From: Euglena gracilis
Lineage: Eukaryota
Assembly (NCBI GenBank): GCA_039621445.1
Contig: CP154954.1
Coordinates: 13,138,716-13,202,715, forward strand
Length of the DNA: 64,000 nucleotides
Direction: 5' to 3'
Part shown: one piece after another, positions 17,097-50,461 of the stretch
Layout of the letters: every line of letters starts with the position of its first letter
How positions within the stretch are numbered: the stretch's first letter is position 1
The notes under the pieces: generated by a model
What the model saw: only the letters and a program-made list of their open reading frames with translations
Database searches by the model: none
Told to the model about the DNA's origin: nothing
Translations under genes and position numbers: made by a program

Positions 17097-29386
<12,290 letters not shown>

Positions 29387-30454
29387 CCCCAACCCCCTGA
29401 GACTGGCGACACGCGGACGAGGATTTGAGGAGCAACGTTGCACTTCGTCAAGAACTGATTGTGGTCGTGACCACAGTCTAATTCGTTGCCTTAAAATGAC
29501 ACCTCTGGCTGTGCATTTAGCCTTTCTCAGACCATGGCTTGTGCATGGTCGTTGTTCATGTGTTGCCTTGTTTATAAGGTTTTTGTGCTTCGGCCCCGGT
29601 GTCCTTTCTTGTCTGATCGGCTCGAGGAGACCAGTTTCAAGTTCAGCAATTTTGGCTGCGAACGAATCCTCAGACATTTTTTCCATTTCGGCTCAATCAC
29701 TTTCAGAGCAGGCGGGTTGGATTGGTTGTAAATGGCTCAAAAACAGGGACCTTTAGTCACTCAAAGTCTTGGCTGGCTGTCACTCAAAAACGTCGCAAGC
29801 AGATTGTCACTCAAAATCCTCGGGGCAGGCTTTTTCAAAAAGGCTCTAAAATCCAATTGATTGGTAGTTTCTTGGGCAAATAATTCACCAAACAATTTTT
29901 CGGAGCAAAACAATTTGGAAAGAAACTGGCAGCCTTTCGAGAAAAGAACCTTGGGGCATCAACTGCTTGCCAAAGACGCCCCCCTTGACCCCGCAGAGCA
30001 TTCGGGCTCCGCACTGCGAGATGGTGAGGTCCTGCTGTCCTTACTCACCATCATCTTACTTGCTCGCCATCTTCTTGTGCTCCGCCCTCTTGGTCCCTTC
30101 CTCCCAATTCCTCCGTCGTGGGAGTCCGACTCCCTCGACCTTGGGGCCCCAACTGCTTGCCAAAGATGCCCCCCTTGACCCCGCACTCCCTCGGGGGGGG
30201 GTGGGACCGAGGGCTCAGCACAAAGACCTTGTGAGGCCATACCTTGCTCGCCGGTGCGGTGCTGTTTGGATTGCTTCGGCGCGTTGGGTTAGGAGCCCCT
30301 GCATAGTCCCGCCTCGCAGGAGTTTGGCTGATAGTGCTTCCCCGGCGTGGCGCCGTGGCCTCTGTCCCGTGGGGGCGTCCCCCCTCTGACCCCCTGGCCC
30401 CATTTTCTTCTGGCCGAGGGCTTTTGATCACAAATACGCGTGGGGGGGGGGCGG

Positions 30455-30901
30455 AGTGTACGTCCAACCCTTTTCCTCGCTTTCGGCCTTTGGTGCGCAA
30501 GGTAAAAAGTTGGAGTAACAAAAGGGGAAAAAAATAAATAATATAAAAGTTGTAAGCCCTTTTCCCAAATTAAGAGGCCGAGCACAAGGCAGGGGAGAAG
30601 CCCTATGGGCTACGACAATGCAAAGTGCCAAGTGACTTGGCTGTCCTTTCAGGACTTCAAATGAAAACAAATCAAACTTGAAATTCAAGTAGGACAAAGT
30701 GAAAGAACAAAATAGAAAATAGAAAATACCACCTGTGGTGAGGAGAACCAGAATAAGGATTAGGTATTCCTAATTCAGGCCGTTGGCCATCTTTAGGAAT
30801 ACCACCTAGCATAGTACTGTGTATGGGGCTCAGAGCTATATCTGGCCGTAGGCTTATACCTACATACACAGTACCATGGCCTTACGGGTGCCTGGTACAC
30901 A
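30455..30901 (-). repeat. 3' LTR of element 1 (447 bp)
   Basis: Near-identical to 47405-47852; reads TGTGTAC...GTACACT on the minus strand. Confidence 0.95.
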
Positions 30902-30911
30902 TCCCCCTCCC
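30902..30911 (-). other. Polypurine tract (GGGAGGGGGA)
   Basis: tccccctccc directly abuts the 3' LTR; identical at 60061-60070. Confidence 0.85.
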
Positions 30912-31734
30912 AGGGCTATGCCTGATTTCCCTACTGGACCAGGCCAGTCGGAATGCCGGACACAGTCCTGGGGACGGGGACCTGTCTCAGAGCCGTATGC
31001 GGCTTTTGGTTCTCCTGTCACCAGGGGTGTAGGAAGGAAGATGCTAAATAACGCAATAACGCGCAAAAGTGGTTAACCGCTTATGCGGTGCCTACTTATT
31101 GCGGCAAAGGGGTGGAAGTGGAAGAGCCCATTGGAAAATGGGGCTGAAGTTTTCCATTCCAGAAAGTCCCATCCACCCAGTTTGGGGTGTGTCTATGACA
31201 CGCGGGGAGGTCTCATTCCATAATCGGAAAAGATTGAAGGGTAGGGTGTGGAAGGAGCGGGAACCTGGCCAGTCATATCTGACCAGGGAGAAAGACCTAT
31301 TTACAAAACCGACTGCCGGCGACAGCGATATTTTGCCCAGGGGGGTAAAGGAGAGAGGAGTGGGGGGCTGGTCAAAAGACCTTAGATGGAAGTTTTGCTG
31401 TCTGGCAGTCTTATGGGGCCTTATAGCCGAAAAGTAACAAGTTAGGGCTATTATTACGGTGTGCGCGCCGTACGCTGTGTGTCTTCTTACTGGCGGCATA
31501 TACCGCTGAGGGAAGGCTTCACAGCGCGGCGTGGACACGACGTTGTCGATGGGGTATCCCCAGAGGTGTATACCTCGACAGACGGGCGGTAGCCCAAAAG
31601 AGAGGGGGTCATATGCTGAATATAAATACATATGGGCAGATGTGCCTGGGATGGATACCGAATCTAGGGCCTATAGGCCTGAAGGAAAGGTCAGAACAGG
31701 GTCCATGGACCTGTGGCCTGTAAGCCTGGGGTAT

Positions 31735-34700
31735 CTATGGCACAGATGGGCATTTCCTGGGAGTCGGTGGTCTGATCTCCCGAACGTAATCTCCTTCAGG
31801 AGTTTCCACTATCTCCAGTATCGGAGGTTCAAAATTTACAAGTTGCCTTTCAGGCTCATCGACATCATAATCGGGTGATTCCCAGGTTTGCGTATACCCA
31901 TCGGGTAATCGTACTCCGAGCCTATTGGCTTCTCGATGAAGAAAATTCTGGAGGTTATCCCAGAAGAAAAGTGGCAACATTGCCGGCCAGATCCAAAAAT
32001 TCAGGCGGGGGTGGTTACACTAAACCTGTGGGGGTATCCCCGGGAAGGTGGCAGTATCTGCCTTGCAATGCCAATTTGCGACTCGCGCTCGGATTGTAAA
32101 GGGCCTTAAGATTTCTCTTACCCAATCGGTAAATTCCATCTTATAGGCCTCAGGGGGGTATTCAGGCAACAAAAATGTATAACTTGGTTGGTTTGGCAGG
32201 CTTTGTGCCGAGAAAAGTGGGTATATCACCCTGTCCCAATCGGAGTCTTGAAAAAGATATGGCACTTTGGCCTTCCCTGCTGACTCGACTGCGAGTCGGA
32301 CAGCTGCGCTGTCAAGTTGAAAATCTTTGGCGATTCCGCCTGTGCGGTAGCTGTGTACAGCTTTAAACTTCTTGAACTGGTGAAAGTTGATCTGGGACTT
32401 ATAGTCCCCTTTGAATTTGACCAGATGGTCTTCATTTTCTGGTATGACTCTAGTCATACCGCCAGTGGCAGGTAACCAGAAATCTGCCTGTAGGCAGTTG
32501 ATGCAACAGACAGGTATGTCCTTGTCATAATCATTTTCCGTCCAGCGGAAAGTGTCCATATTGGACCATGGCAGTAGGCAATTGCCACAAAGCAATGCTG
32601 CGCAATTGCGCACATATGCGTCATGGTGGAAGTTTATGCTGTCCGGATTCCGTGTGCAGATATGCACTGCGGGCATGTCGTTTCGTAGCATATGGCCTGC
32701 TGTACATAACCACAATAGTGGATCATTTTCCTTGAAATCCAGGACGAAATTTCCTCCAAAATATTGGGCAAATACCCTTGGAGATTTTGCGTTCCAAAAA
32801 CGCCAAGTGTGGCTGGTCGTGAAAATACCGGGTTGATCCCGATGGAACAAGGGCTTGATCCACTTGTTCAGCCAGGGGTCACTGCTATTGCGGATCATAT
32901 TGATCCTAGCCTGGCGAGTGTTGAGGGGGTCTACTCAGGACAATACGTCCTCAGTCCAAAATGGCTCATTAGCCTCGTAAGGGACATTTGACCGAATAGG
33001 TCTGATTGTGGGTTTGTGCTTAGCGCCTTCAGAGGTTGCAGCCACATAGCTGGCCATTGGTATTGTGGGCCTATGGCCTGTGCCAGAGCCATCTCCACCA
33101 GGAGGTGGTGGCTCATCATCCCGCCGCTTTTGAGCGGGCTTGCAGCCTTCGGCTGAGGGTTTAGCCTTAGGCTTTTTGTGTTTGCCATATCGGCGTTCTT
33201 CCCCAGGGTCTGCCGGAGGCAGTGGTCTTTCCGCCGTTGGCGGTTTCGGGGCTGCCGGCTTGGCAGGAGGTGGTTGCATTTCCGCCGTTGGCGGTGCTGG
33301 TGCCTCTGGTTTCGCCACTGGAACATCCAACTCCATTGGAGTTGTGACCGCAGCCTGTACGGCTGTTGAGCTGCTATCAGCAGCAGTAACCCTTTGGGTT
33401 TCGGGAGGGGATGCGGCAGGTGAGCCGCGAGGGGTCAGCACTGCCGATACTGCGGACATCGCCGCAGTGACACCCTGTAGCACACCACCTTCCTCCTGAA
33501 GGAGATGTCAGCTCAGAATCTGAATCTCCAACATCCGAGGCCGAACGGCCACCGGTACCTCCGGTACCGCCCCTTTCCTTACCCGCAGTGCCAACGGCAT
33601 CAACCCCGACAGAACCTGTCGCATCACCAACAATACCTACAGGGGGTGTTCTGGAGCCCATTGGGGCTGGTGGAAGAGCTGGATGCTGTGGTTCATCAGC
33701 ACATATTTCTTCCAAGCCTTCCATGCGGTCTTCACCGCTCTCTCCATCACTCTCCTCACTGCCCTCCACCGTTTCAGGTGAAGCAGCAGGGGCTGCTGGC
33801 TGTTCCGCTATCGCGGTAGGCACAGTGCCTGTTTGCGCAGTCGGGCTGGTTGGTACCGCAATAGCGGGCTGGGGCGAGGAGGTAGTCCCTTAGGGACAAA
33901 AGGTCTGCTGTAGCCGATAGGCTTGCACCCATGTAACGCCGACCACTCCCGAAGACGGGTGGTGGTGTCTCACCAGGAATACCCTGGGGTAATGGCGTTG
34001 CCGGTTGCGGCTGAGTTGTGACTGATGTTGCCGGTTGCGGCTGTGTTGAGGATTCCGATGGCGGAACTTCCGGAGCCGGTTGCGGCTTCGGGCGGGGTGC
34101 CTTTGGCACCTGTCTTTTCCGTAATCGGAAAAGATCCCATGGTTTCCGTTCTTCTTCAACCATCCTGTGGTTGAAGCGCAGGAGGGGTAGGGCCATGCCC
34201 AACTCGTTCCGTCTGCCGCGTTGGAAAAACAGGCTGGAACAGCGCTCTATCGAGCGTATCGCCGAATCGGCGTTTGACATAATCGTCAATGCTTTCCTTC
34301 TCGAACCGGGGTCTAATGGGGACATAGTCCGGGGGAATCTCCCTATCGGGATTGAGATAATAATATATCTCCATGATCTGGCAGGTCCAAGCCCTGAACC
34401 AGAACTGCTGCAAATACAGCAGGAGTTGACGGTGGTTGCGTCGCCCGTTCGAGCTTTGGTGTACATCCTTTTGATTTCGGCAAAGGTGCAGGAGCATGAT
34501 GCGCTTTGGCGCTGCCTGCGGGACATTGGCCTGTTGGCCTTCCTCGTCCTGGCCTTCGGCCTGTGGTTGAGTACTGCGTACTCCGAATCCCCAGAAGTCC
34601 ACTGCAAACTTTTCGTAGCAGTGAGAAAACCGGACGATATCGACCACTTCAAAGTGATAGGCATATTGCCAGTGGTAAAAGACTTGCAGATTGCTGCAGA

Positions 34701-37417
34701 ACATGTTTCCCGCCAATTTGGCGATATTTTCAGGTAGTGGGTAGAACTCCCACTCCAGGCCTTTTGGGCCCACACTGTGAATGCAGTCGAATAACTGTCG
34801 CAGCAGGTCTTTACCTGTATTGTATCGGTCTTCCCGACCACAATCCAGGTAAGGATAGCCACAGGAGTTCAAGAATCTGCCGAAATTTTGGGTAGGGTAT
34901 CCCGCCCAGAACCAAACATGCCAGAAACCCGGCAGATTGTCCAATATCGGACTGAGGATGGGATTGCCCTCAAAGGCATATAAAGTTCCATCATGGTGGA
35001 AATCACGATTTCGCTCCGTATAGAGCTGTCTGGCCACAGTCACGACGGGGGAGGCGACCAGGATTGCAAGGTTAAGTTCATTTTGGAACTTCCACATGGC
35101 CTCGAATGCGAGGTCATGAATGCTCTGGATTTGCTCGAATAGAGCTTCCATGTCGTCCTCATAGACGTTCCGGTATTGGCCTTTCTGGCCTTTGCCTTGG
35201 CCTTTTTGGCCTGCGGTAGGTGCTCGTTTGGGAGCACTTTTGGCTTTACCCTTGCCCGATTTGGCTTCCCATCGGGCAATCTCTTCCCTAGCTTGTTTCC
35301 AAGCATGAGGACAGAGATCGGATGAAAAACAGGGACATAAAAATGCAGGATTCATATCGCTTGTTCGTCCAAGCTATTCCTGTGGGGCATAAGCCAGTTT
35401 GGGTGCTGGGTATGCTGCAGGTTGATCCTGCATATCTGCCACGTTCGAGGGTATCGTCGAAAATTTTCTGTACTCGTGCACGCTCCGCAGCTTCATGCTC
35501 GATTGCTGCCCTATGGGCTTTTTGAGCCAGTTCGGCTCGCTCGAGCTGCTGCTGTGTGGGTTCAGAAACAGGTAGTACCTCGGTTGCGGCCTGTTGGCCT
35601 GGAGGTACTGGTGTCTCTTGGGGTGGTGCCACTGGTGCTGTTACAGGCTGTGGCGCCGTTGGCGCTGCTACAGGCTGTGGCGCGATTGGCGCTGCTGCAG
35701 CTGTCGGCGCTGCTGCTTGTGCTGGCACCGGTCTGGGGGGTTGCGCCATTGGCGCTGGCTTGGCCGGCACGGTAAACGGTACGGGCACGGGAGGGGGTGC
35801 GGCCTGTTGACCACCCGATGCCCGACGTTGCTGTGCAGGGGTAGCCTGTCTGGCTGGGCCTGGGGGTTTTGGTCTCCCCATTCGGGATGACAATTCTGGC
35901 CTACCCCGTTTCCCTAGGTCTGCTGGCCTGTATGGCTGTGTTGCATATCTGCGTTCTGCAGACTGTGGGCCCTGGAGGTGTTCCAGGGATTGGTAGTACT
36001 GGATGGCCTGCTGAGGTGATGTGAAGCAGGGTTCTGGAAGGGGTTCATGTACCGTTGGTACAATGTCTTCCACAGCCATACGGCCTTCGGCCTCGGCCTG
36101 CTCCACATCCTCAGCCCAGCATCCAGGTTCCTGAGCCACCGGCATATCCAGTTGTACGGGTAACTGACTTCCTGCTTCCAGATGGGCTGGATATGGAAAT
36201 GGCGGTAGTGCCGTTGACGGTTGCGTCGTTGGCTGATACGCATATTACGTTGGGGGTTCCCGATATTCGGGTTGTGGTGGTCTTGGCATACGAGGAGGGG
36301 ACTGGGTATCGCGAAAAATTTGTGATGGCTGCACCATTGGTGCTGGGATATCTCCCGCCTCGCTTTCCGCCACTGGGGGGCTATGCACCCGCATATATTC
36401 GGTGAATGCACCTGTGTGATGACGGATCCGCGGCATCGGCGGTGCCTGGATACTCAGTGTACGCATGCTGACATCAGGGGGATATTCCCCAGGAATGAAG
36501 TACACTTCACCTGTCATCAGAGTTTGGCCACAAGCGCACCATTGTGCAATAGGCATATTGGCCAGGCCCAAAATCTGACGACAGTGGGTATCCCACATCA
36601 CTTGTAAGGAGGGGTCTGCTCTTTCGAGTGCGCTAACGCGCAGGGCAGTCCGCAGAGTTTTCTCTGCGAGATTCACCAATTCTGCGGTGAATGCGGGGTA
36701 TGGCACTGTTAGTGCTGGCTGGGGCGTCTCATGCGCCGCAGGGATCGCATAAGGGGATATACTACTGCTGCTGACCGCGGTCTGAGCCGCAGGCTCCCGA
36801 CCGGGTTGAGCAGCAGGAGGGAGCATCGCCTGTACGGCGTGTACCTGGTGCGGGATACCCTGTACGGGTTGTGATTGGGGTTGTGTTTGGGATTGTTGAG
36901 TCATAACGTACTGTGGTGTATACAGGATGGGAGGTGAGGGACCAGGCATGGCGTAATGTGCCTGCTCCATTGGAGGTGCCTGTCCCTGCCTCGCATACTG
37001 TTGTTGTTTCATTGGAACTTGGTGTACCTGTTGAGGGTGTGGTTGTTCCATTGGAACTTGATATGTCTGTTGAGGCTGTGTCGCATATGTAGCTCCCATT
37101 GGCACAGAAGCCGAATGAGCGACTGGTGGTGGTTGCGCCTGACAGGGGGGCGGCATTTGTGCCTGAGAGGGGGGCGGCATTTGTGCCTGAGACGGGGCTG
37201 ACATATGTGACTGAGAGGGGTATGGAATTTGTGCCTGAACCATTTGAGGGGGGGGTGGCATTTGTGCCTGAGCCGCATAAGCGGCTGGAGGGGGTTGATA
37301 TACCGCATATGCAGGCGCCCCGTGGGCTGGAGGTGCCGCCGCATAGGCGTGTGGGTGGTAGGGAGGGATGGCATACTGTATAGGGGGCGGTCCTGGGCCG
37401 CGCCCTGGGTCTTGCAT
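31735..37417 (-). pseudogene. Extra ORF3 of element 1 (~1,900 codons, disrupted); Pro/Gln/Ala-rich linkers with globular and Cys/His-rich segments; function unknown
   Basis: Track ORFs 36245-37510, 35288-36145, 34156-35355, 33377-33823, 32935-33483, 32020-32898 and 31735-31980 are colinear. They are joined by single in-frame stops (36245, 32935, 32020) or by frameshifts. The ATG at 37417 is preceded by a polypyrimidine tract and AG (37462-37461). Confidence 0.7.
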
Positions 37418-37543
37418 TGGTCCGGGAACCAAAAGAAACAAAAAAAGTAGCTTTGATGAGCTGTAGAAAAAAAACAAGGGATAAATGAATTGGGGTTGGG
37501 AGAAAAACACAGAGAGGGGAGGGAAAAGGCCTATAGGCCGATT

Positions 37544-40500
37544 TCAAAAAATATTCACAGAAATGTCTATGTTATTTCTTTTATTACACAGCTTCCAGTC
37601 CTGTTGGACATAACCAATAAAACTGGAGGCTGGCTCCCAGGTGTCCTCCTCTGGCCCATAGCCTTTCCACCTGACCTTCCAGTAATGGACTCCCCGATCA
37701 AGTTTGTGATCGAGAATTTTGTCCACCACGAAATCATCCGTTTCGGGTAACTTGGAACGGGGCTTGAAATAAAGGCACGGTAGTGCTTTGCATAAGGCGG
37801 GGAAAGGTATGGTTTGAAATCATCCATGTGAACATCCTCGATCCCGTTGGGAAGTGCCACCCTATAGCGGCCACTGTTACCAACGCGTTCGAGAATTTCA
37901 CAGGGCCTGAGCCAGAGGGGGTCTAGCTTGGAAGCTTGCATACGGATTCGGCTATTCCGAACCCATACGCGATCACCAGCACTATAGCCAGGTGATTTGA
38001 ATTCTTGCAAAAATTTATTTCTCTTTTGAGAATGGATATCAGTAATGCGTTTCTGAACAGTAGTTCTGAGAGACTCTACTTCAGAGAACCATGTCTCACA
38101 GGTTACGCTACTTCGAGCTGGTCTCTCTGATGGTATATCACCAATCGCTGGCGGGTCTCGCCCAAAAACAATTTTATATGGGGAGTGCGGCAAAACTAGA
38201 CCCGGTAGGGTGTTTATATAAAAGAGGGATCATGGCAAAACCTGGACCCAGGCCTGGCGCCAGTCATCCAGTGAGAGGCGGAGCATATTTACAACAGCCT
38301 TCACTGCTGCCTCGGCGCGGCCATTGCCCTTCGGGCAATATATAATTGAAAAATGCTGTTTGATTCCCAGTAAACCACATAGGGTTGTGAAGAATCGGGG
38401 GGAGATCAAATGATCTTGATCACTGACAATCTCATTCGGCAAGCCCATTAGTCAGATACACTTTTCTATAAATATCTGCGCTAAAATTTGCGCGGTCAAC
38501 CCTGCCTTTTGGCTTGGAATGGCTACTATGTAACCACTCAACCGACAGAAGACAACAAAAAAAGAATCTTAAATTTTGCCGTCTGATCCTTTGCAAGGTT
38601 CTAATTCAAGAAAATCCATGCAGAGGGACGTAAAAATGTCAGCGGGTACGGGTAAAAAATCAAGCGTACCGGGTGGGTACCTTTGCGCCGTTTCACCGCT
38701 TGACAAATTTGGCACCGTTGCGAAATTTGCAAGCAGCGCGAATGCAAATCTTTTTCTTTCTGGGTTGTACAATACCTGCGACCCACCAGAGAAAGAAGTT
38801 TGGGGGCCCCAGGGTGACCTTGGTTGTGATAACACAAAATTACTTCATCAACCAAGTCACGGGGTATACAATATTTATATCCCGCATCATCGCGGTAAAC
38901 CAACCGTAAAGGCGAGATAGTACAATTATGTACAACCTCGCCATTGCGCAGTCTGTGCACTATCGTGCTATATACAGGGTCATGGGAATAATCTCAATCG
39001 CGAAAGAGGAGGGGGGAAGGAGATTCAGATCGCGTAATGCGACGGGGACCAGGTGTGCGGCCTCGCCGTCTTCTCCCCCATATAGGACAGACTGGCAACG
39101 AACGGAAAATCGATGAAACGGGAAAAGAATCCAACATATCGTCGGCTGCGTCATATCGACGTGTATATTCATCAGCCTCTTGGCTGCCATGAAAGGTGGC
39201 ATCACCTTCATCCAGGTTACCGGGGTAATGCCAGGGTGCTCGGCTGAGCGGGTCTGCTACTTTCTGTGTATGGCCAGGGTATATACAACCACTAGGTTGA
39301 ATTGGCTCAAACATTCATGCCATCGGCATCTTCGGCCTACAGATGACATGGATTTGTTCAGATCCTTGGTATACCAATGTTGAAGACTCTCATTGTCAGT
39401 CAACACCAGTATTTGCACCAAGGAGCTGGCGACCCAACTACGGAATTTTTTGCAAAATAAGTACGATTGTGTACGTTTCCTTCTCACGGATACTCCACTT
39501 GTCATTTGACTTTGCCATCTTCACCTTGTAGCTTTCTACTGAAAAATGCTACAGGGCGTAATTCGTTAGCCGCGTTATGCTGGATTAGAACACCGCCTGC
39601 AGCATAATCGCTGCTATCGACTTCTAGCACATAAGGCTTGTAGGGATCCTCGATGACGAGTACGACATTTTCAAGCATTAGCTTTTTAATGCTCTCTAGA
39701 GCTTCACGCATATCTGCGTCCCATTTAATTTTTGTTTTTTCGGGTGCGCGATTTTTGAGCTGCCTCGATAGAGGCACCGCGATTTTCGCGAAATCTCTCA
39801 TGTAAATCGCGTAGTATTGAGCTAATCCCAAAAATCCTTTCAAACGGGTGATGGTCTTGATGACCTCAGGTGTCCACTTCTTAATGGCCTCTAGTTTGCT
39901 AGGCGCCGCTCGGCGTTGGCCATTATTAAGAATGTGACCGCAAAACTTTATCGTTTCGCGAAATAAGTCCATTTTAGCTCCTTTGACAAAAAGTCTATGT
40001 TTGAGAAATGCGGCTAATACCGCGGAACATCACGATAGTGAATGTCGAGAATATTCTCGTGTGTATTCGCTGAATGAGGGGGGGTACCAACCAAAACATC
40101 ATCAAGTACACCAGCGCAAACGGTAAATCCCGTAAGACCCATTGGATCATGCGCTGAAACATTGCTGGTCCATTCTTAACACCCATTGGTAAAACAGTCC
40201 ATTGGTAAACACCTTTGGATGTTACAAAAGCCGTATAGGCTTGCGAATCGGGATCCAGATGCATTTGGTGGAAACCATCCTCCAGGTCGAAAATTGACCA
40301 CAAGGGGTTATCCGCTTGTTTGGTGATGAGGTCCTCTATTAGAGGGAACGGGAATGGGTCATCCTTGGTTTGTGAGTTCAAGTATCGATAATCCAGTACT
40401 ACCCCCCACTTTTTCTGACCTGATGGGTCTGGGGCTTAGGAACCACAAAAGCTTGGGATGTCCATTCACTCTTGGAAGGGATGATCCACTTCCGCTCTAT

Positions 40501-42930
40501 GAGCTTTTCAATCATTTCATTGAGAGCTATCTCTCTTTCTCCAGAACAACGGAAAAATTTCCGATGCATTGGCTTTGCGCCTTCCTTAAGCTCAATCTTA
40601 CAAACTCCAAAAGGTCCGCGAATAGCGGGATCTATATCGCAAGCGTAAACAGGATTCTCCAAAACACCAGAAAATTCGCGACTGATGCGCGTAAAAACTT
40701 CTGCTGATTTGGGGTGCTGTCCTGCACTTTCAATGACAGCGGAAACCTGTTTATGGGTCATATCAACCACAGGGCAGGCAGAACGGTGATGCTTGTCGGC
40801 ATTATGCAGAAAAGCCGTATCGGATACCACATAGTCGGTATTATCCAACACTCTAACATTCAGGGGTCGAGACTGAGAGACATTGAACGCATCAAAGAAA
40901 CAAACACGGAAAATGATTTCTTGAAAAGGTGGTAATACCACTCCACGGAAATCCTCGAATAGAGGAACATCGTTTGGTAGGTCCCACCAATAAAATGTGA
41001 CATAAGTCAAATTTTGAAACCATTCCGCTTCGGGATTCACAGGAACAAGTAATGCGCCTCGCGCTTGATCCTGGAAAATCTTATTTACAACAAGCGGGAT
41101 AAGTATTATGGGGGGATGCATCCATAGGATAGTGTCTCCCCAAAACTTATCAAAAGCGTTAGAATGTTGCGACCAATGTCGCGGTAATCGCGAATGCGCG
41201 TTGGAGGAGAATGCATCAATTTCCAAGGTCAAATCAAAAGAATCCGCCATATCGGCGATTTTTGAAAACCAATGTTTCAAAATTCGATATTGACCAAATT
41301 GAAAAGCATTCCAGGTATCCTTGGTGTACTTGGAGATCCGCTCAACATCCTGAAGGGGGGTAACACGCTGTAACACACAACAACGGAAATTGTGAATCAT
41401 CGACACAAAATGTCCATAGGACTCAATCCAGGGGGTCATGGGTTGGTTGGGCATATCGCCGATACCCAGGTGTGAGTGCGGATAGCACGAATGCGCGATA
41501 TGCGCGGGATTCGCACTATGTGCGTCAAGCGCGATATGCGCGGGGGTGTTGGAGAGCGCCATAGGCGCATGGGGAGCGCTATGCGCAAATCCGAAAAGGG
41601 AGGCTATGCCTTTGCACTGTAGTGCTTGATTCACATTCGCGAATTGCGAAAAGCTTCCAAGTGTATGTGTGGGATGTTAACAACTACTAAGTGTATTGTT
41701 GGGTGCACTACCCATTGTACCAAGGCCATGTACCTTTTGGTTATCTATTAAATCCGTACCGGTTGTACCACTACCAAGTACATAGGTACCACTACCAAGT
41801 GTAGGGGGGTAAAAGTTCCCGGTTGCGGGATCCAATCGGATTAGTTTGGAAGATTCAACTAGACACCCACAATCAAAATCATGGTAAGCGGAGATTCTCC
41901 GACAGTGAGCGCATTGGTAGGAGGGTTGATGCATGTGGTGCGCGTTTGTGTGGGTGTCAGTGCATAAGTTGGTGTCGGTTGGGGTAGCTGCTGGGGGGTG
42001 TACAGGGATGTCTGAAATCGACACACCTGGTGGAAAACGAAAAAGTTGGGCAGCTGGGCGGCTACTCGACACCGTAATTACTTCAGGCCTTTGGGCTTTC
42101 GCCTGGGAACCCAGCGAAACGTGCGGGGTTAAGCTACTGGCTTTCCCTACCGCATGGGAAACGAGCGGTAAAAGTGCGGTGGGTAGGGGGGCAGCTTTCT
42201 CTTTACCCCTAGGGTAGGAAACGGTGTTTTCGGTTGTGGAAAACGTTGTGGAAATGCAGGGGGACATCCCGGGGGATGTCACGGGAGACAAGTTTGGGGG
42301 TGTGATGTGTATGTGGGGGGTAGTTCACAAACCGTGCGAAGGACAATCCACCACCAATCGGTGTTGCCGTAGGAATGGAAAACCGAGTATGACATCAGAT
42401 CCGGCGATATTCTTCTCGAATGCCCAAGTACCCAGAACATTTTGGAATTGTGGGGGGGGGGTGCTTCGGGATAATGGGGAGGACTATGTCCAAAATGCAT
42501 CCCAAGTCACCACCGCACATGGGGCTGTTGTCTGCAGTCATCATTTTGATGAGATTCTTGGCATGAACCAAGAGGGGGGTGGGTATAAGTCCTTTGCGGA
42601 AAAGAAGGGGGATTCGACATCCTGTGTCGACTAAAATTTTGGCTTGTGCACAAAAATTTTGCGTTTTAATTTTCGCTTGGACCAAAAGTTCCATGGGGGG
42701 TAGGCAAAGCGAATGGTCGGGTGTAAAATTGTTGTCGCACCAACTGTTCCATGACCCTTTGCTTACTTTGCTCAACATTCCAAGCAAAAATTTGGCGCGG
42801 GGAGTGGGGGACCCGAAAATTTTCCGGGTACCGACCAAAAAGACCGATGGGCAGGGGGGCAGGGTTGATCAGTTCCTACCTCCATCTGTTCATATGCCCA
42901 GAGGTCCGTGCCCTCAGACCTCGGGCTCCC
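37544..42930 (-). pseudogene. pol: pol polyprotein (protease, Dam-like methyltransferase, RT, RNase H, DDE integrase, chromodomain), frameshifted
   Basis: Protease ILVDTGC (~42625). RT IFDLEDGFHQM and LPMGVKNGPAMFQR. RNase H LEVDSSDYAAGGVL and LTDNESL. Integrase CMDF / IVSDQD / GNGRAE. Chromodomain VDKILDH...WKVRWKGYGPEEDTWEP (37570-37730). Confidence 0.93.
40885..41295 (-). other. Dam-like (DIRS-type) N6-adenine methyltransferase-like domain within pol
   Basis: LEIDAFSSNAHSRLPRHWS..NAFDKFW..LWMHPP..LIPLVVNKI..ARGALLVP..EWFQNL, in the same reading frame as the start of RT. Confidence 0.72.
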
Positions 42931-45900
42931 CTACTCCATATCGGAGTCAGCCTTTTGGCCTATGGTTGTCTTCCTAGAATAAATTGCGCGTATCGCGCCA
43001 TTCGCATTCATGTCTTCCGCCAACTCATCCTCGGTGCTCTCATCCCCCTCCCTGCCCGAAGCCAGGTCTTTTTCCTCGATAGGGGATTTTTTGAAACCAA
43101 CCCGCTGCCTATTGGCAGAACCGCGATTGGAATCGCGACGACCATGGCTAGGACGGGGAGAACAGGAACGGGGGCACTTGGATGAATGGTGGTCTTTAGA
43201 CCCACAAAGGGAACAACGGTTTCGCGATTGTGATTGCCTTTTGGCATCATAGCGACGCGGGGATCGCGTATCCGCTCGACCGCGATCAGATCGCGAAGAG
43301 GATGATCCACTTCGCGACCGAGATCGCAAAGAATCGCGATTCGTATCCCGATTGCAGGTGGGGGGGCGGGGGGACCGACCACGCGGTATGAAACCACGTC
43401 CGCTATTGCGGTGGGGTGAACAGGAACGCGGTCTACCATCACCCGATCGGTATCCCGATCGCTGCGAATGCGCAGAACGTGAAGAACGCGACCTCCAGGA
43501 AGAGAGGGATCCTCGGGGGCTCTTACTGCGATTTCGCGCTTGGGGATTGGGACACTCCCGAGACATAAGTCCTGGTTGATTACACAAAAAGCAAACTTTG
43601 TCCGAAACTTGATCAGAAGAGCGCGAGTAGCGCGGTTTGGATTCCCGTGTGGGGGATTTGGGGTTTGAGCGCGGATGGCGCGTTTTGGAATCACTCGATG
43701 GTGATTTTGGTGATTTTGGGGAAGTAGTCCTTTGGACTGCATGGACTGAACCGGTGGGTACACCCGCGGTGGGGTGGTGGTGATACGCCGATTCAATCTG
43801 ACCCAGAAGTTGTGATAACTTCATTTGTTTGGAAACATAGTTCCATCTCTCATCGAGAGTCAAAATGTGTCCCGCGAGTTCCTCGCGGTTAATTTCCTTG
43901 ATGAGTTTGGGGATATAGCGCAGTAATACCGCATCAAATTGTTCTTTGATTTGCTCTTCCCCTAACTCATCAACTTCGGCTGCCAGTGCAAGCCACTTGG
44001 AGTACCATAAGTCTATCAAACTTCCATTTGCGGTCCGGGGAGGTAAATTGCCGCCATTTGTTTTCCAGACTGATTCTGGAAACCAAACTGGAGCATGATG
44101 AAGCATATTGCTCAACCAATTCCTCAAAAGAAATGCGCCTGCATATGACTAATTGTCTGGCGCGTTCTTTTTCATCCCTTGGGAGGCAATCAATAAACTC
44201 CATCTTGATTACCTCTGGGTTGTCAACTTGGGTGGGTCCCTTCAAATCCAATAATATTCCCAGTCGCGGAAAAATTGTTTCCATGTGGTGGGGTCACCAT
44301 AACATTGGGGCTTCACCTTGTTCGCTATCGCGATGGTGCCTTTGAAATCTTTCTGAGAAACCCGTTGCCCTTCGGTGGTATTCCAGGGGTGTGGGCCCGG
44401 GCGCGAAATTGCACCACGTGCAGGTACACCGGTGGTTGCACCAAGGGTATTGTTCGGGTAATTCTGCGAATGCGCACGGAACATACCACTTAGTGTACCA
44501 TAGGTACCATGCAAATTAAATGAATCGCGATTGCGCGAACGGTGATGCGGTTGCGCATGTAGGGGTGAGGTATCACATGGTTGCACCATTGGTGCTACTA
44601 AGCGAGTTTGGGAAGTATGACCAAAACCCAGTGTGGGGGTGCGGGCCATACCACGAATTAGTTCGGATTCCCGAATCTCTTGATATAAGAGGGGGGTGGG
44701 TCTGGTTTTCGCTTGAAAACTCGACTCGTCATCCGAAAACTCGTCCATTGGGCCTGGTAATGCTAGTGGGGGAACCACCGCATGAGCGGAAACGCGATTT
44801 GGTGGTAATGTGCCTGTGGACTCGGGGATTGTTGCGCGAGTGGCGCTTTTTGAGCTGGAAGCTGCGGCAAGTGTGCCAACCATACCCGATTGCGGGTTTT
44901 GATGGATGGAACGCAATTGTGCGTGAATTTGGTCCAAATTTGTTGCAAACTCATGCACACTTTGCTCCAAATAGTCAACAACCTGCCAATTGTCGGTTAT
45001 CCGACCCACATCCTCCTGCAAACGCCTAATCCGCCTACGGTATGAGGGTAGCTCATCCAAAAGCGGGATTTTGTCGGATATCGACTGGAAATCGTGCGAA
45101 ATTGCACCAAAACCAGTGTCCAATTCCTGTACTCTTGTCACCAACGTGCGCATCGCACTGTAAATGTTCTCCAATTGTGGAGATGGCTTGGTGGGTTGGT
45201 CCGAATGCGGATCTTTGACTTTTTCAGCCATTTGCTGTTTCTGCAACACTGAAACTTGCGCGGATAGCGCGATAAGCTCATTTTGCAGTTTTGTGACATC
45301 CTGCTTCACCGTTTTCTCGGTGTTCATGAGACCATCACAAAATCCTTGCATGATTTGGTGATTTTCCGCGCGCATTTCAGCGCGAATCTGGTCCAACTGT
45401 GTGTTTGGGAGTGTGGGGGGAGGTGTTGGTAACGGCAATGTGCCTTGGGGTGGTGATTGCACCTGAAGCATTTTTGTGCTCATTTCTTGCATGCGTTTGT
45501 GCAAATCCGCTATCGCGGTGTGAATGCCGGTAACATCCGGGATCCTACCAGCTACTTCCGCATGGCGGGTGTGCAACTTAGCCAATGACGCTTCAATGTT
45601 ACTAACATCCTGTTGTTACTGTTTGTGCAAGTCGGACATGGTGGCCTTGAGTCCGCTAATATGCGGTGTTGGTGCACGGGTTGCCGCATTGCGGTTCTGC
45701 AAATCCGTGATTGCGGTCCGGATTTCCATTGTGTCGTTTTGCCACTGTTGTTGCAAATTGTCAATCCTACTCGCGATATTCGCGATTTGCGTTTGAAAAC
45801 TCACAATTTCAGCAAGAATTTCGCTACAATGGCAAGATATCTGCTCCAATCGAGAAAGTCTTTCCTCCAATTGTTGCACATACGTGCGGGGGGCAAAACG

Positions 45901-47145
45901 TTCATTGGCTTGGGCGGAAAAGTGCGCAAAATTCGCGGAATCACCGCTCTACTGGGAAATGTGCTGTTGCGCTTCCTGAAATGCGGATGCAAGTGTGGAG
46001 AATTGCTCCAATGTGATAAATTGTCCCAAATCGGGATTTTTGACGGAGATTTCATGCAACTTTTGCTGCAATTGTGGAAAAATTGCCGTAATTGGTTCCA
46101 ATTGATGGGATAAAGCTTGCAAACTACGTTGCATGTTGGAGAAAATCGCATCATTGCGGGATTGTGTTTCACACATGGCTTAACTCACTTTTTGGAAGTG
46201 TTGTGGCAAATGTGCCTGCAAATGTGTGTCTAAACCTTGACGCAAAGTTGCTAGGTCCACATTGGTGGATTGAACATTTGTTCGGCAATATTCACCAACA
46301 TCACGCACATAACTGCAAAGGTAATTCAGCTTGTGTTCTACAAACTTTTGGTTGTTTTCATCAAAATCCAAAACAGTGTTAAGTGTCATAGCGCAATCCG
46401 CTACACGGATTGAGTACACACTAAGTGTGGACATGGGAGATTTGCCGCGTTAGCGGGTGGTCCACTGGAAGATTTGCGACTATGCGCTGAATCACGGTAA
46501 TGGGTTGAGGGGAAATATTTTTCAACTACTCCGCATCACTGCTCATAGATTCTGTGGGACTTGCATAAGCCGGAACTGTCAAACGCATCTCCGGGTGCCA
46601 TGGCAATGCCGGAAAAGAACCCGTATCGGGTGGTGCGGGCAATTGTCCAATCAGACTTGTGGGGGGAAGCATAGGTGGGGGCTGAAAGAAACATGGTGTT
46701 TCTAACCCACCCTCAACAAAAAGTTGCTGTGGCGTATCCGCCTCAGAGTCAAATGTGCCTATCGGCACCAGTGCGAGATCTCGCCGTGGGAATGGGTGTT
46801 AGCCGATCGGCTTTCCAACAAAAGGGGTTGGGCCTGTTGGGCATGGGGTTGCTCTATAGAGCTGGAAACCAAAAGTGGTTGTGCCTGTTGGGCATGGGTT
46901 TGCTCTATAGAGCTTGACACCGATAAGTGTGGGGGTGCCCATCGGGCGGTGGGAGGATTATTCGACACAGACACCGATAGGTGTGACACACGCGGGGAAG
47001 GAGGATTACCTGCACAATGAGTCAATGCTTGAGTACCCCTATGGGGTTGAGAATCCTCATTGGAGCTAGTCAATGATGCCGCAGGTTCAAGTACTCGAAG
47101 TGATCCAATCAATGCAGCGTAGTCAATGGGAGTTGTGCTCTGCAT
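42931..47145 (-). pseudogene. gag: Very long gag (~1,400 codons): coiled-coil N-terminal half, capsid-like region, two CCHC knuckles around an Arg/Ser-rich tract; disrupted
   Basis: ATG at 47145 (MQSTTP). Knuckles CFLCNQPGLMSREC (His lost) and CSLCGSKDHHSSKC. Ends at TAG 42933-42931. Homologous throughout to 50462-54439. Confidence 0.85.
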
Positions 47146-47371
47146 TTTTGAAGCAAAAACACAAAAACCAAGTGTAACTAGTGGTGTAAAATGCAGAAAC
47201 AAGTGCAAAAAGAGGGGATAGTATAAAAAGTAAGCAGAGACCCGAACTCTGAGGTTTGAAGCAGCGTATACTGCGAACCGTCAGAGGACGTGTCCGTGCG
47301 TACGGCTTTGGCCGGAAACGGCTTGTAGTGCCTGTGGTCGCCTATAGGCGGGGCACCACACGACCGTTTCC

Positions 47372-47404
47372 GGTCAAATGGATCGAAAACCTAAACTGCT
47401 ACCA
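47372..47404 (-). other. Primer-binding site, initiator tRNA-Met-like
   Basis: TGGTAGCAGTTTAGGTTTTCGATCCATTTGACC immediately after the 5' LTR. Confidence 0.8.
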
Positions 47405-47852
47405 AGTGTACGTCCAACCCTTTTCCTCGCTTTCGGCCTTTGGTGCGCAAGGTAAAAAGTTGGAGTAACAAAAGGGAAAAAAACTAAAATAATATAAAAG
47501 TTGTAAGCCCTTTTCCCCAATTAAGAGGCAGAGCACAAGGCAGGGGAGAAGCCCTATGGGCTACGACAATGCAAAGTACCAAGTGAATTGGCTGTCCTTT
47601 CAGGACTTCAAATGAAAACAAATCAAACTTGAAATTCAAGTAAGACAAAGTGAAAGAACAAAGTAGAAAATAGAAAATACCACCTGTGGAGAGGAGAACC
47701 AGAATAAGGATTAGGTATTCCTAATTCAGGCCGTTGGCCATCTTTAGGAATACCACCTAGCATAGTACTGTGTATGGGGCTCAGAGCTATATCTGGCCGT
47801 AGGCTTATACCTACATACACAGTACCATGGCCTTACGGCTGCCTGGTACACA
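47405..47852 (-). repeat. 5' LTR of element 1 (448 bp)
   Basis: Near-identical to 30455-30901. Confidence 0.95.
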
Positions 47853-50461
47853 GGCGGCTCAATTGGTCTAGTAGTCCCGGGATAAACCGTGACCAGCGAG
47901 GAGTTGCGTGGGAGTACTTCAGTGCCACAATGGATTTTCCTTCTGAAGATTTTCCAGAGAGATTATTCCTGCCAAATTTACTTGTCGTATCACCACAGAT
48001 TTTTCAGAAAAGCGAAGTCCCAGCAGTTTTTCATGGGTTGCCACAGGATGTTAAGACCCGAGAAGATTTTTCACAATCAACTTGGCCAATTTCAGCACGA
48101 ATTTAGACGAGTACCCAGATTTTTTTGGAATTTTCTCAAGATTCCCACAGTTTTTGCCAACGGCATGCATTTTCAGCAATATTTATTGTGGGGGGCATGG
48201 GCCCATTTATAAACTGGCATGTATTTTCCCGCACAAAGGTGTTATCTCACACAAGGTTCGTTCAGCTTTCAAGTGAAAAAAAAGTTAATTTTTCCTTTCC
48301 CCGTCACAGAAAGTTTCCTGTGACTTTGACAGATTTTCAGCCAAAGCGGTCGAGATGGGTGATATCCTCCGTACGGGGAGATGGGGAGGAGGGAAGATCC
48401 TTGGTAGGAATGTGCAATGAGGAGAGTGCACGAAAGTTATGTGGGATGGGATCTTTTCAGAAACGACCACAAAAACAGGCGGAGACCCAAGCCCGTCCCG
48501 TTTTGCAAATTTTCCTTTTACCCCCTAGTTGCTCCCTCCCTAGGCAACCTAGGTCCAGAGGTATGGGGAGCAACATTTTTGACACCCCTCGCTCAGATTT
48601 TGGTCTTCCCCAGAATGGTGTATTTTCCTTCCGTATTTTTTGCAAGTAACAGACTCACGAACAATACCTTCTTTGTATGCCCTCCAGGTAAGCGTGTTGG
48701 ACTTTCCCGTTGAAACACATGAAACATTTCCATCTGTGATTGCCCTGGTGCAACATTAGCTCACAGGGATTGGGGAAGGGGAAGGGATGATGGGGGAAGG
48801 CGCCGTTCTTTGTTGCCAAGATTCAATTTTTGTAGGTATCCCATTTCGGGGCATGGTGAAAAATGACGCAAAAATAAACAGGTTTTCTTTTCATTAGCAG
48901 GATTTTACGCCAAAACTGTCCAGAGTTTCAACAACGTTTTTTAAGAAGGATTGGAAGTTTTTTTGAGACATAAATTTTCGACGCTTCAGAGTTTTGTCAA
49001 ATGTGTCTCTGATGCGAATACGTGTCATGTGCTAAGACAAGAATTTCCCCTTATTTTTCACCAAAAACGGTAGAATTAAAGCCAGAAAGAAAAAGAAACT
49101 AGAAAGGAGTTGGCAAGGGAAAAAAGTTTGCTTATTTCACTCAGTGGATGGTTGATTTCCATCGGACATGAATTGCTGATTTCCCCTAGCGATTTTCATT
49201 TCCCCCAAGCTCAAGTCCTGAGAATGATACAGGGATTTTTTGAACAAACGCAGAGGGGATGCAATTCAAAGGACCAGGTGACCCCCTCTTGATACGAGTC
49301 AACCCCGCGTTTGGTTGCAGGTAACCAAATTCGTTTAAAAAACACGAAACGAGAACGTTTCTCAAAATTTCACCAGAAAACCTCAGGAAGGGGGGGCGTC
49401 GTCAAAAAATTCTTCGAAAGTGGAAGAAGCACCGCTGCTAAACCCCAACTCTCTTGTAGATGCCCCCTAATGAATTTTGGGTTCGGAGGAACAATTTTTG
49501 AAATGCCAAGGAGACAAAAAATTGACAATTTTGGATTTTATTTCTGTAAAAGCAAAAGTTGGACAAATTTTCCAAGTGCATTTTTTCTCCAAAAGAGGTT
49601 ACAATTTGAGCCAAGATTTGAGAGATGGCCGGGTGGGCAAGGGTTGGTGTGACCCACCCAAAAAAACGAATCCGTAAGTCACATTTCCTTTTCACTTTTG
49701 GGAAAAGTGATCAATTTTTTTTGTTGTTTCTGATATTTGGTGTTTGGTCGCGACAAGCAACATACCACAAAATTCAACAATACCCCCTAACAGAAAAGCG
49801 TGCAACACTCAAAAAGCGGGGAAAGACAAAAAAACGAAAACAAAACAAAGTTTGTGAGACTAATGTCATGAGCAACGCTTCCAAACTGTGTACCAGGCGT
49901 ATGCTTCTCTCCACTTCCGTTAAGGAAGTTAGGATGGAAGCTGATCCTTCTCTCTCCACAGGTGGTATTCTTATTCTTTTATATTCTTGTTCCTTCCTTT
50001 TCTCTGGACCGGACTTGGATATCCAGTCCGTCCTCCCTGCATTGCACTGTGCTCTGCTTCTTGGGAAGTGGGAAAAGGGTTTTTTCTGTTACTCTGATTT
50101 TCAGTTCCCAAGTAGGTGCGCCAAGGCGAAAGCGAAGGCTTTTTGTGAATTGGGAAAGGGAAATTGGGAATCAGACGTACACTTGGTAGCAGATTGGTTA
50201 CGATCCCACACATACTTCACAGAAAGAAAGGCTACCAGGTATTACACTTGGTAGCAGATTGGTTCGATCCTACGCTGACTGGCAGCGCAGGGCCCCTGCA
50301 CCGTTGTTACACGGTCGCAGCGTCAGCTCCCGGCTTCTAGTCAACGTCTAAGCAGACGAGCAGGCTCCGGAAGGCTCTGTACGGATTACCCGTTACAGCC
50401 CCTCTGGTGCCAGCACATCTGCTTAGTTTTGTGGTTTTTTGCTGTTTTTGTCATCAGAAAG

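Follow-up and report, generated by a model that had tools for sequence, protein, structure and literature searches.

Sense additional open reading frames (ORFs) between pol and the 3′ LTR, known as aORF-3S, occur in plant and insect Ty3/Gypsy elements and include the env-like ORFs of the Athila/Tat type and that of barley Bagy2 (PMC7264820). Pol and the 3′ LTR are also far apart in the Retand lineage of plant Gypsy elements (PMC11963269), which are non-chromoviruses with a known extra ORF in antisense orientation (PMC7264820). LTR retrotransposons of bdelloid rotifers carry captured additional ORFs common to diverse elements (PMC5408684). In Euglena, the DAM-LTR and EpiLTR elements contain DAM, DNMT and chromodomain modules in or beside pol, and EpiLTR combines a cytosine DNA methyltransferase (DNMT) with DAM and a chromodomain (bioRxiv 10.64898/2026.05.21.726589); a term search of the main text of that work found no mention of an additional ORF or of anything accessory, uncharacterized or of unknown function.

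The element analyzed here is located on the minus strand of a 64,000-nt stretch of Euglena gracilis contig CP154954.1 (the window), to which all coordinates refer. Its extra gene is of the known aORF-3S type, and this copy is dead. We suggest that the extra region is probably a real, family-borne accessory coding region of a high-copy Ty3/Gypsy chromovirus-like retrotransposon. It resembles aORF-3S in position, orientation and occurrence in many copies, as well as in an acceptor-like tract before its ATG and thus a possible spliced RNA, and differs in having no membrane span or signal peptide, a chromodomain-bearing element, ~1,900 codons and a euglenid host (PMC7264820). The unusually long interval between pol and the 3′ LTR is reminiscent of Retand (PMC11963269), but here the ORF is in sense orientation and a chromodomain is present (PMC7264820). 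Extra ORFs beyond gag-pol are shared with the bdelloid elements, a likeness by description only and from a different host (PMC5408684). No similarity of the extra ORF to any named family was detectable.

The element spans 17,398 bp, in agreement with the ~17.4 kb proposed in an earlier note on this DNA, and is complete, showing the hallmarks of a Ty3/Gypsy LTR retrotransposon: paired LTRs, a target-site duplication, a primer-binding site and a polypurine tract. The 5′ LTR (47405..47852, minus strand), which begins with TGTGTACC and ends with GTACACT, and the 3′ LTR (30455..30901, minus strand) are 97.5% alike across a 448-nt alignment, and the 5-bp target duplication CCGCC is present on each flank (47853-47857 and 30450-30454). 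The primer-binding site TGGTAGCAG (TGG...) adjoins the 5′ LTR; the stretch immediately past this LTR, TGGTAGCAGTTTAGG (47390..47404, minus strand), was assigned by sequence reading as a putative primer-binding-site-like sequence. The polypurine tract GGGAGGGGGA (30902-30911, minus strand) adjoins the 3′ LTR within the 3′ untranslated region (30902..31734, minus strand). A stretch of the latter, 31050-31599, has 90% identity to 60225-60771.

The Gag region (42931..45615, minus strand) comprises a coiled-coil-like ORF (44242-45615), with weak matches of the coiled-coil type, and a CCHC zinc-knuckle ORF (42931-44148), with a Pfam zf-CCHC match at its cut-off (E=4e-4). A VDTG motif was seen by eye in the translation of the protease-like ORF (42395..42868, minus strand), which has no Pfam match. 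The order RT - RNase H - integrase in pol was confirmed by Pfam on the minus strand, where the RT, RNase H and integrase zinc domains (38604..40435) are decayed and spread over several frames (RVT_1, E=6e-17, piece 39998-40435; RT_RNaseH_2, E=3.2e-17, with RT_RNaseH in piece 39505-40029; Integrase_H2C2, E=3.2e-7, piece 38604-38993). They are followed by the integrase SH3 domain and the chromodomain (37625..37975, minus strand): SH3_Tf2-1 (E=6.9e-7, piece 37570-38229) covers 37822-37975, and the chromodomain covers 37625-37732 (PF00385, E=1e-11, 45 bits vs. a cut-off of 25.1 bits, minus-strand piece 37547-37819). A chromodomain directly upstream of the extra ORF, as read in the earlier note, is therefore present, and its location at the integrase C-terminus makes the element a chromovirus by architecture, a class given by domain layout and not by an RT tree.

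A DAM-like (N6-adenine methyltransferase) stretch was found in pol (41011..41241, minus strand) as a weak match to PF05869 (E=3.3e-4; 20.8 bits, below the cut-off of 28.1 bits), covering profile positions 25-105 of 169. The host, the Ty3-like layout and the chromodomain are features in common with the DAM-LTR and EpiLTR elements, and this weak DAM-like stretch may be another; the element is unlike EpiLTR in having no DNMT among the scanned pieces (bioRxiv 10.64898/2026.05.21.726589). That Pfam scan, which found no DNA-methylase family, covered 14 ORF pieces, a further 35 drawn from the leader and the protease-to-chromodomain part, and 65 from all six frames of 31.1-37.7 kb; in gag it was confined to the two long ORFs.

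The extra coding region (31735..37417, minus strand) lies between the chromodomain and the 3′ LTR, and runs in the same sense as pol from ATG 37417 to TAG 31735-31737 over ~1,894 codons. The decayed same-sense ORF of ~1,900 codons (5.7 kb) described earlier could indeed be traced, the path in this copy having three in-frame stops and at least four frame changes. The same-sense open stretches are 37543 to 35290, interrupted by TAA 36245-36247; 35373 to 34158; ~34250 to 33900; 33889 to 33379; and 33507 to 31737, interrupted by TGA 32932-32934 and TAG 32017-32019. The decay is roughly equal to that of gag-pol. The number of frame changes needed, together with a path that is ambiguous at 34250-33880 from this copy alone, would also suit two or three consecutive, separately expressed cistrons, corresponding approximately to blocks A, B and C (see below) with their linkers. 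We consider such a division rather unlikely, and a single ORF comprising all ~1,894 codons reasonably likely.

The window is GC-rich (~54%), the P/Q-rich start of the region is open in all three frames, and no Pfam match was obtained in any frame on either strand (65 pieces, 31.1-37.7 kb), as might be expected of a nested unrelated element or of GC-rich DNA that codes for nothing and is open by chance. This explanation is extremely improbable. Stop-free stretches of at least 150 aa in 31735-37543 numbered 11 in sense vs. 1 in antisense, far beyond the chance level of 500 first-order Markov simulations (mean 1.07, maximum 5). All five tandem-repeat periods of the region (24, 51, 39, 27 and 30 nt) are multiples of three and so keep the frame. 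No inverted repeats, terminal repeats or second TE gene set were found inside it, and the nested element that the earlier note had named as a possible refutation was thus not detectable. These repeats and the strand asymmetry, with the block C family and the sibling copies considered below, have already largely refuted both a nested element and chance frames. The extra region is thus neither a chance product nor a nested element, and other copies have it too.

Sibling copies were examined as DNA contigs of the same organism with at least 90% identity along the element (runs X1 (79,157) and X14 (33,019)). The region was present in many contigs of both runs, contrary to the absence from siblings that had been named as another possible refutation. 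The sibling variants read were 40 of the 958 substitutions and 12 of the 30 indels, among those listed. Two stops proved private to this copy, one of them among the three counted on the path: TAA 36245..36247 (minus strand), where siblings read CAA (the letter making it accounts for 215,473.5 of 215,539.9 depth in X1 and 61,507.7 of 61,507.7 in X14), and TAG 35374..35376 (minus strand) in the block-B frame, where siblings read TTG (150,959.5 of 150,959.5 depth in X1). After 33903, siblings have an extra base (30,014.8 of 30,308 depth in X1; 8,502.4 of 8,502.4 in X14), and the one-base gap at 33903..33904 (minus strand) is a frameshift in this copy; by itself, this indel, one of those listed, does not unite the two frames of the minimal path. 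The listed sibling letters thus open two stops and do not confirm ORF ends, which argues against several cistrons.

Averaged over its 10 bins, the extra ORF had 0.51x (X1) and 0.49x (X14) of the mean summed depth of gag-pol (16 bins). Contig depth summed in this way does not count copies, and some copies may lack the extra ORF. Such a halved depth would be in line with a passenger, that is, one or more cellular genes that the element captured in the manner of retroviral transduction, by recombination or read-through, and that were amplified with the family without serving the element. We regard this origin as improbable; a very large number of contigs contain the region, which in siblings is open at the sites read.

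The encoded protein begins with a low-complexity part rich in Pro, Gln, Ala and Tyr (36716..37417, minus strand) with in-frame 24-nt and 39-nt tandem repeats. Block A (36368..36715, minus strand; ~116 aa) is rich in order-promoting residues and has no Pfam family, no PDB sequence match and no detected relatives. Block B (34273..35193, minus strand; ~307 aa) is rich in Trp, Phe and Tyr and in order-promoting residues; searches of Pfam, NCBIfam and PDB sequences gave no match, and no relatives were detected. AlphaFold gave a pLDDT of 37.7 for block B, and both AlphaFold models were unusable. Blocks A and B are taken as coding only from their open frames, their frame-keeping repeats and the letters read in siblings. 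The Pro/Ala/Thr/Gly-rich linkers (33022..34272, minus strand) contain in-frame 30-nt and 51-nt repeats as well as one acidic patch and others that are basic, and near 33490-33300 share 59-73% identity with the predicted proteins P0011, P0013 and P0015. Three basic clusters are present in the protein as a whole. The computed order-promoting blocks (36715-36368, 35193-34273 and 33021-31774) match the three globular-looking blocks noticed before, the last of which, block C, extends beyond an in-frame stop. The highest 19-residue Kyte-Doolittle mean was 1.37, giving no membrane span, and the Pro/Gly-rich N-terminus MQDPGRGPGPPP is not signal-like, so the earlier reading of a protein with neither signal peptide nor transmembrane run holds. 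Since there is also no Pfam match in any frame, the extra ORF is not env-like.

Block C (31798..33114, minus strand) is a conserved domain. A search of 1.84 billion representative proteins gave 14 relatives with E<=1e-3, of which 8 reach <=1e-10 and 2 reach <=1e-30. It contains a Cys/His cluster, CTxCH...HxC...NCxAxxCxxC...CxNC, and a second motif, PGxPxQxxxNHPxxNxxIWP, both of which align with P0004, P0006, P0008, P0010, P0014, P0017 and others. Identity to the relatives ranges from 22 to 93%, and those at 22-49% keep the Cys/His pattern and NHPxxNxxIWP. The closest of those named here, P0003 (93%), is an E. gracilis transcript with the EukProt name EG_transcript_43227; this style of naming occurs in E. 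gracilis papers, and EG_transcript_43227 itself did not appear in supplementary tables from the Euglena papers examined. In this copy, Gly replaces the second Cys, one motif codon is a stop, and the stops of the block are those at 32932-32934 and 32017-32019. Judging from these alignments, the ~400-aa C-terminal block C is a member of an unnamed protein family whose conservation extends to 22% identity, and shows long-term conservation at the protein level.

The relative P0017 is a 426-aa protein on a 1.6-kb contig, with an unbroken ORF across the site of TAG 32017-32019 and a Met start just ahead of block C. Its free-standing look suggests that block C may once have been a cellular gene, as the passenger explanation supposes, and its start position would agree with a separate cistron for this block. 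On the other hand, P0004, P0006 and P0008 keep the linker-plus-block-C layout down to ~40% identity, which fits long persistence, and in P0006 and P0008 the linker passes into block C unbroken, against a division into cistrons. The complete element, the excess of sense ORFs, the coding-type repeats, the sibling DNA with its letters and the block C relatives together argue for a family-borne gene.

The pol stop TGA (37544..37546, minus strand) shares its frame with the beginning of the extra ORF. A single TGA is all that separates the chromodomain ORF from the in-frame stretch 37543 to 36247 in this copy, as a C-terminal Pol extension made by read-through would require. We judge this very improbable. 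The 42 codons from the pol TGA to ATG 37417 form a T/C-rich tract that reads like a non-coding spacer, and the chromodomain ends shortly ahead of the stop, as it does in ordinary chromoviruses. Moreover, the base at 37521 in this spacer is missing in ~45% (X1) to 72% (X14) of sibling depth; with a one-base loss in about half of this depth, pol and the extra ORF do not stay in frame across siblings. For this reason, the extra ORF is likely a cistron of its own, with ATG 37417 as its start.

The pyrimidine-rich part of the spacer (37461..37527, minus strand), ending in ...TTTTTTTTCTACAG, has by sequence reading the look of a splice acceptor, a putative function. The 12-nt palindrome GGCCTATAGGCC occurs 5 nt past the pol stop (37528..37539, no strand assigned) and 56 nt past the stop of the extra ORF (31668..31679, no strand assigned). 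These are its two exact copies in the window, and with up to one mismatch there are 4 matches vs. 0.09 expected. Identical palindromes on either side of the module could be the marks of a captured passenger; however, the core GCCTATAGGC is found three times in the element, the first time in the 5′ leader (47340..47349, no strand assigned), which makes a recurring signal more plausible than an insertion scar. GCCYATRGGC has 4 matches in the window vs. 0.34 expected. Euglenids use spliced-leader trans-splicing, which can resolve polycistronic RNA and could therefore serve several cistrons, but no further pyrimidine-tract/AG and palindrome punctuation was found inside the extra region, the palindrome being at its two ends only.

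RNA was sparse on the element (85 matching records among 12.9 million and 200 among 8.3 million, mostly 90-95% alike). In run X24, the summed bin depth of gag-pol was 13.4 in sense vs. 2.6 in antisense, and that of the extra ORF was 2.8 vs. 3.9, with no sense bias. No splice or leader joint was found among the RNA rows listed. Translation of the extra ORF would be carried by a subgenomic RNA starting from the pyrimidine-tract/AG acceptor past the pol stop and produced by cis-splicing or by euglenid spliced-leader trans-splicing; we put forward this route only tentatively.

The product would be a soluble, non-membrane protein with three folded blocks held together by long disordered Pro/Gln/Ala linkers and basic patches; the third block would bind zinc by 8 conserved Cys and 2 His. 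Rather than an envelope, it might be a scaffold or adaptor that works on nucleic acid, on chromatin or on the particle of the element itself. Retroviral accessory and regulatory genes, which also lie downstream of pol and act on the host cell or their own RNA, encode far smaller proteins; the likeness is one of role only, with no homology. The non-env accessory protein proposed in the earlier note is thus supported by the lack of a membrane span, signal peptide and Pfam match, but its designation as an anti-silencing or chromatin factor has no support from homology, fold or expression, and a specific nuclear chromatin or nucleic-acid role is doubtful. Nothing ties the protein to any retroelement function, a point that would favor a passenger.

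In its fullest form, the proposal would be a giant accessory protein (~1,900 aa) with disordered linkers and three folds absent from current libraries, translated from a capped subgenomic mRNA that trans-splicing at an internal acceptor releases from the full-length transcript, with GCCTATAGGC as cistron punctuation; this combination as a whole is unlikely. Block C would then represent a new two-zinc-type Cys/His domain common to free-standing genes of other protists. If true, this would mean a new route to a retroelement subgenomic message via host spliced-leader trans-splicing, and the protein would represent a new class at the retroelement-host interface, in a genome with elements already bearing DNA-methylation modules.

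The element occupies 17,398 bp on the minus strand (30455–47852) and is bounded by direct repeats (LTRs) at 30455–30901 and 47405–47852, which show 97.5% identity across 448 nt. In the minus-strand reading, the LTRs start with TGTGTACC and finish with GTACACT; a primer-binding-site-like run, TGGTAGCAGTTTAGG, directly follows the 5′ LTR, and a polypurine tract, GGGAGGGGGA, directly precedes the 3′ LTR. CCGCC is present at both outer flanks (47853–47857 and 30450–30454). Taken together, these features indicate that the element integrated normally. In sense-strand order, a coiled-coil-like ORF and a CCHC zinc-knuckle ORF come first, then an ORF with a VDTG motif spotted by eye, and the pol domains, all on the minus strand: RT (E = 6e-17), RNase H (E = 3.2e-17), integrase zinc domain (E = 3.2e-7), integrase SH3 (E = 6.9e-7) and, last, the chromodomain (E = 1e-11). 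Upstream of RT, the pol ORF includes a DAM-like stretch (N6-adenine methyltransferase, PF05869; 41011–41241, minus strand), a weak match below the cut-off (E = 3.3e-4). The pol domains are spread over many frames, and so this copy is decayed throughout.

The chromodomain ORF stops at TGA 37544–37546, which is followed by a 12-nt palindrome, a pyrimidine-rich tract of about 65 nt ending in TTTTTTTTCTACAG, and ATG 37417. From this ATG, a same-sense path leads through five open stretches to TAG 31735–31737, with three in-frame stops (TAA 36245–36247, TGA 32932–32934 and TAG 32017–32019) and at least four frame changes. There are 11 stop-free stretches of at least 150 aa in the sense direction versus 1 in antisense; 500 simulations with matching dinucleotide composition gave 1.07 such stretches on average and 5 at most. 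The tandem-repeat periods inside the extra ORF (24, 51, 39, 27 and 30 nt) are all multiples of three. These figures are evidence that the extra ORF is more than a set of chance open frames, and the same-sense, decayed ORF of 5.7 kb proposed in the earlier note is borne out, with the caveat that each of the three frames is partly open at 34250–33880, leaving the path there ambiguous in this copy. Each of the four frame changes that the minimal path needs along 37543–33379 (minus strand) is +1. The indel listed for sibling copies at 33903 has the opposite direction; hence, the minimal path may not be the real one in the linker joining blocks B and C.

Three blocks rich in order-promoting residues, A (36715–36368), B (35193–34273) and C (33021–31774), were found close to where globular-looking parts had been noted. 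The maximum hydropathy of any 19-residue window is 1.37, too low for a membrane span, and the N-terminus is Pro/Gly-rich. The noted lack of an obvious signal peptide or transmembrane run held, and the ORF is not env-like.

The first open stretch is in frame with TGA 37544–37546 in this copy, which would allow the extra ORF to be a Pol extension made by read-through. We consider this unlikely: the spacer between TGA and ATG reads as non-coding, and 45–72% of the sibling depth lacks one base at 37521, which breaks the frame relation. The palindrome GGCCTATAGGCC is located 5 nt past the pol stop (37528–37539). Exactly one other copy occurs in the window, 56 nt past the extra-ORF stop (31668–31679). 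At no more than one mismatch, four matches were found versus 0.09 expected in the window, the one-mismatch forms (62219 and 62635) lying where CCATAGG-type palindromes abound. A further copy of the 10-nt core GCCTATAGGC (0.34 matches expected in the window) lies at 47340–47349 in the 5′ leader; it is enclosed by a GTGGT...ACCAC stem roughly 55 nt beyond the primer-binding site. The flanking 12-mers as the target duplication of a nested insert were dropped because of this third core copy. With a copy at each of three cistron boundaries, a putative signal for processing, dimerisation or packaging seems likelier than the scar of an insertion. There was likewise no sign of the extra ORF being a nested, unrelated element: repeat scans found no inverted repeats inside it, and Pfam scans found no family in any frame on either strand.

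A second copy of the extra ORF was not found within the window. The related plus-strand element at about 50838–58331, with 68–75% nucleotide identity in gag-pol and an intact 459-aa RT/RNase H ORF (56412–57788), breaks off inside the integrase and is therefore uninformative on a former extra ORF. A minus-strand fragment at 59759–60771 resembles the element in the LTR and the 3′ untranslated sequence alone (overall identity 78%); identity between 60225–60771 and 31050–31599 is 90%, and beyond this the fragment sequence is unrelated. To the right of the fragment lies unrelated AT-richer sequence, and then 63643–63926 briefly matches 41926–42209.

Public sequencing runs decided the matter. Fourteen DNA-type runs of one organism contained 46–54% of the region's sampled words. 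Contigs of two DNA runs, X1 and X14, were placed along 30300–47404 at ≥90% identity in 30 bins; 79,157 (X1) and 33,019 (X14) contigs matched the element, and all 30 bins, including every bin of the extra ORF, were covered by sibling contigs. The ratio of mean summed depth in the ten extra-ORF bins to that in the sixteen gag-pol bins was 0.51 (X1) and 0.49 (X14), where the gag-pol bins themselves differ about two-fold and summed contig depth is not copy number. We read this only as the extra ORF occurring in a large share of family copies. Absence from the siblings was thus not observed, and the coverage argues that the ORF is family-borne rather than private to this copy. A few single contigs of very low depth join distant parts of the element (e.g., 30968 to 39039), indicating that deletion derivatives exist at very low depth. 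Among the sibling differences listed (40 of 958 substitutions and 12 of 30 indels), the siblings almost unanimously have CAA in place of TAA 36245–36247, TTG in place of the block-B-frame TAG 35374–35376, and one extra base after 33903. At 32382, the siblings and the transcript-derived protein P0003 have Tyr where this copy has His.

A search of 1.84 billion representative proteins with translated 31735–33507 (stops as X) yielded 14 relatives of block C at E ≤ 1e-3, of which 8 reached ≤ 1e-10 and 2 reached ≤ 1e-30; identities ranged from 22 to 93%. The relatives have two motifs in common, a Cys/His cluster (CTxCH ... HxC ... NCxAxxCxxC ... CxNC; eight Cys, two His) and PGxPxQxxxNHPxxNxxIWP. 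In this copy, the second Cys is replaced by Gly, and a TAG codon lies inside the second motif; the relative P0017 (426 aa) is unbroken across both. The relatives P0006 and P0008 reach upstream into the Pro/Ala-rich linker and have an RDDEPP..GG patch in common, and the linker near 33490–33300 shows 59–73% identity to P0011, P0013 and P0015. P0003 (123 aa, 93% identical) carries the EukProt label EG_transcript_43227. Labels in this style appear in Euglena studies, among them the transcriptome paper on E. gracilis; we therefore take at least one sibling to be transcribed, and the host to be E. gracilis or else a species very close to it. The entry itself was not found in the supplements of PMC6366073, PMC12267456 and PMC10967724. 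Judging by these alignments, block C is protein-coding and under constraint.

A word-index protein search (167–532 aa) gave no block C relatives, a metagenome contig scan with the block C alignment confirmed no genomic loci, and a viral contig scan gave no locus. For block B, nothing was found in the word-index search (222–709 aa), and a metagenome contig scan confirmed no locus. Overall, blocks A and B had no relative in the 222–709-aa word-index search and the exact-peptide metagenome contig scans, which is weak evidence of absence. No Pfam family was assigned to nine path pieces and 65 further pieces (all frames, both strands), the only match being low-complexity Cornifin below its cut-off; therefore, the extra ORF contains no DNMT, and the element is not an "EpiLTR" form as described in bioRxiv 10.64898/2026.05.21.726589. 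Scanned against Pfam, the 13 aligned block C members gave a best E of 0.022, in one member. NCBIfam gave no match to the extra ORF, PDB sequences gave best E-values of 0.24 (single-protein queries) and 0.47 (block C profile), and Rfam found no family anywhere in the window. AlphaFold models of block C (from the 13-row alignment; mean pLDDT 37.8) and of block B alone (pLDDT 37.7) were unusable.

A pyrimidine tract and AG located 44 nt before ATG 37417 look like a 3′ splice site. Hence, the most economical route of translation would be a subgenomic RNA made at this predicted acceptor. Euglenids add a spliced leader to their mRNAs, and an internal acceptor alone would suffice to give the extra-ORF message. 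The predicted route can be likened to the subgenomic RNAs of retroviral env and barley Bagy2 (PMC7264820). Only 85 and 200 reads of the two RNA runs matched the element, mostly from siblings, and no splice joint or leader was present among the reads listed. In the RNA run X24, coverage was lower over the extra ORF than over gag-pol and had no sense bias over the extra ORF. At 42857–42916, RNA reads of run X21 stack on 60 nt and run on both sides into non-element sequence (17, 4 and 12 reads); this seems to be a gag-protease piece common to the element and an expressed transcript from elsewhere. At 30901, reads of both runs exit the LTR edge into other internal sequence (7 and 5 reads, one consensus), and expressed elements with the same LTR and a different 3′ internal part appear to exist.

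The predicted product is soluble and linker-rich in make-up. It has a prion-like P/Q/A/Y start, three predicted folded blocks, basic and acidic patches (including three Lys/Arg clusters) and the Cys/His cluster of block C, with ligands enough for two zinc ions by sequence. This layout suggests a scaffold or adaptor that may bind nucleic acid, chromatin or the particle, a tentative proposal that we hold to be less likely than not. The earlier interpretation is partly supported: the giant non-env accessory ORF and an element of about 17.4 kb stand; none of the results supports the specific anti-silencing or chromatin factor.

Elsewhere in the window, repeat units of 8 and 10 nt form a long array (about 1027–2250; 133 overlapping copies), which shows a strong GC skew of 0.415 and is open in all six frames. 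Three plus-strand ORFs at 20134–26453 have leucine-rich-repeat matches (LRR_4, E = 9.9e-8 at 25902–26453) and may be host-gene pieces. A tandem duplication of about 350–370 nt (27627–28363; 81–85% identity) has several open frames on both strands.

Extra ORFs located between pol and the 3′ LTR belong to a known kind (PMC7264820), and further cases on LTR elements have been reported (PMC5408684, PMC11963269). Euglena elements with adenine and cytosine methyltransferases and chromodomains, including DAM-carrying LTR elements, were described in a 2026 preprint (bioRxiv 10.64898/2026.05.21.726589); by term searches, its main text makes no mention of such an ORF, its passages on ORFs being about other subjects, and a literature search on Euglena Gypsy retrotransposon ORFs gave no paper on one. 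Within the known kind, the present case is distinct as a sense-oriented accessory ORF of very large size and non-env character, carried by a chromodomain-bearing euglenid element and ending in a member of an unnamed domain family. LTR elements make up 32.81% (text) or 21.8% (Table 4) of the E. gracilis genome, and another third is unclassified (PMC11252322). In each DNA run, contigs matching the present family number in the tens of thousands; if functional, the extra ORF, which escapes domain-based annotation, would be among the most repeated coding sequences of this genome. It provides three protein blocks, as yet uncharacterised, for work on structure and function, and a concrete site at which to ask if spliced-leader use for downstream genes extends to retroelements in organisms that trans-splice. 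As a further accessory gene, of 5.7 kb, on an element of the sort described in the preprint, it widens the view of retrotransposons as vehicles for host-interaction toolkits.
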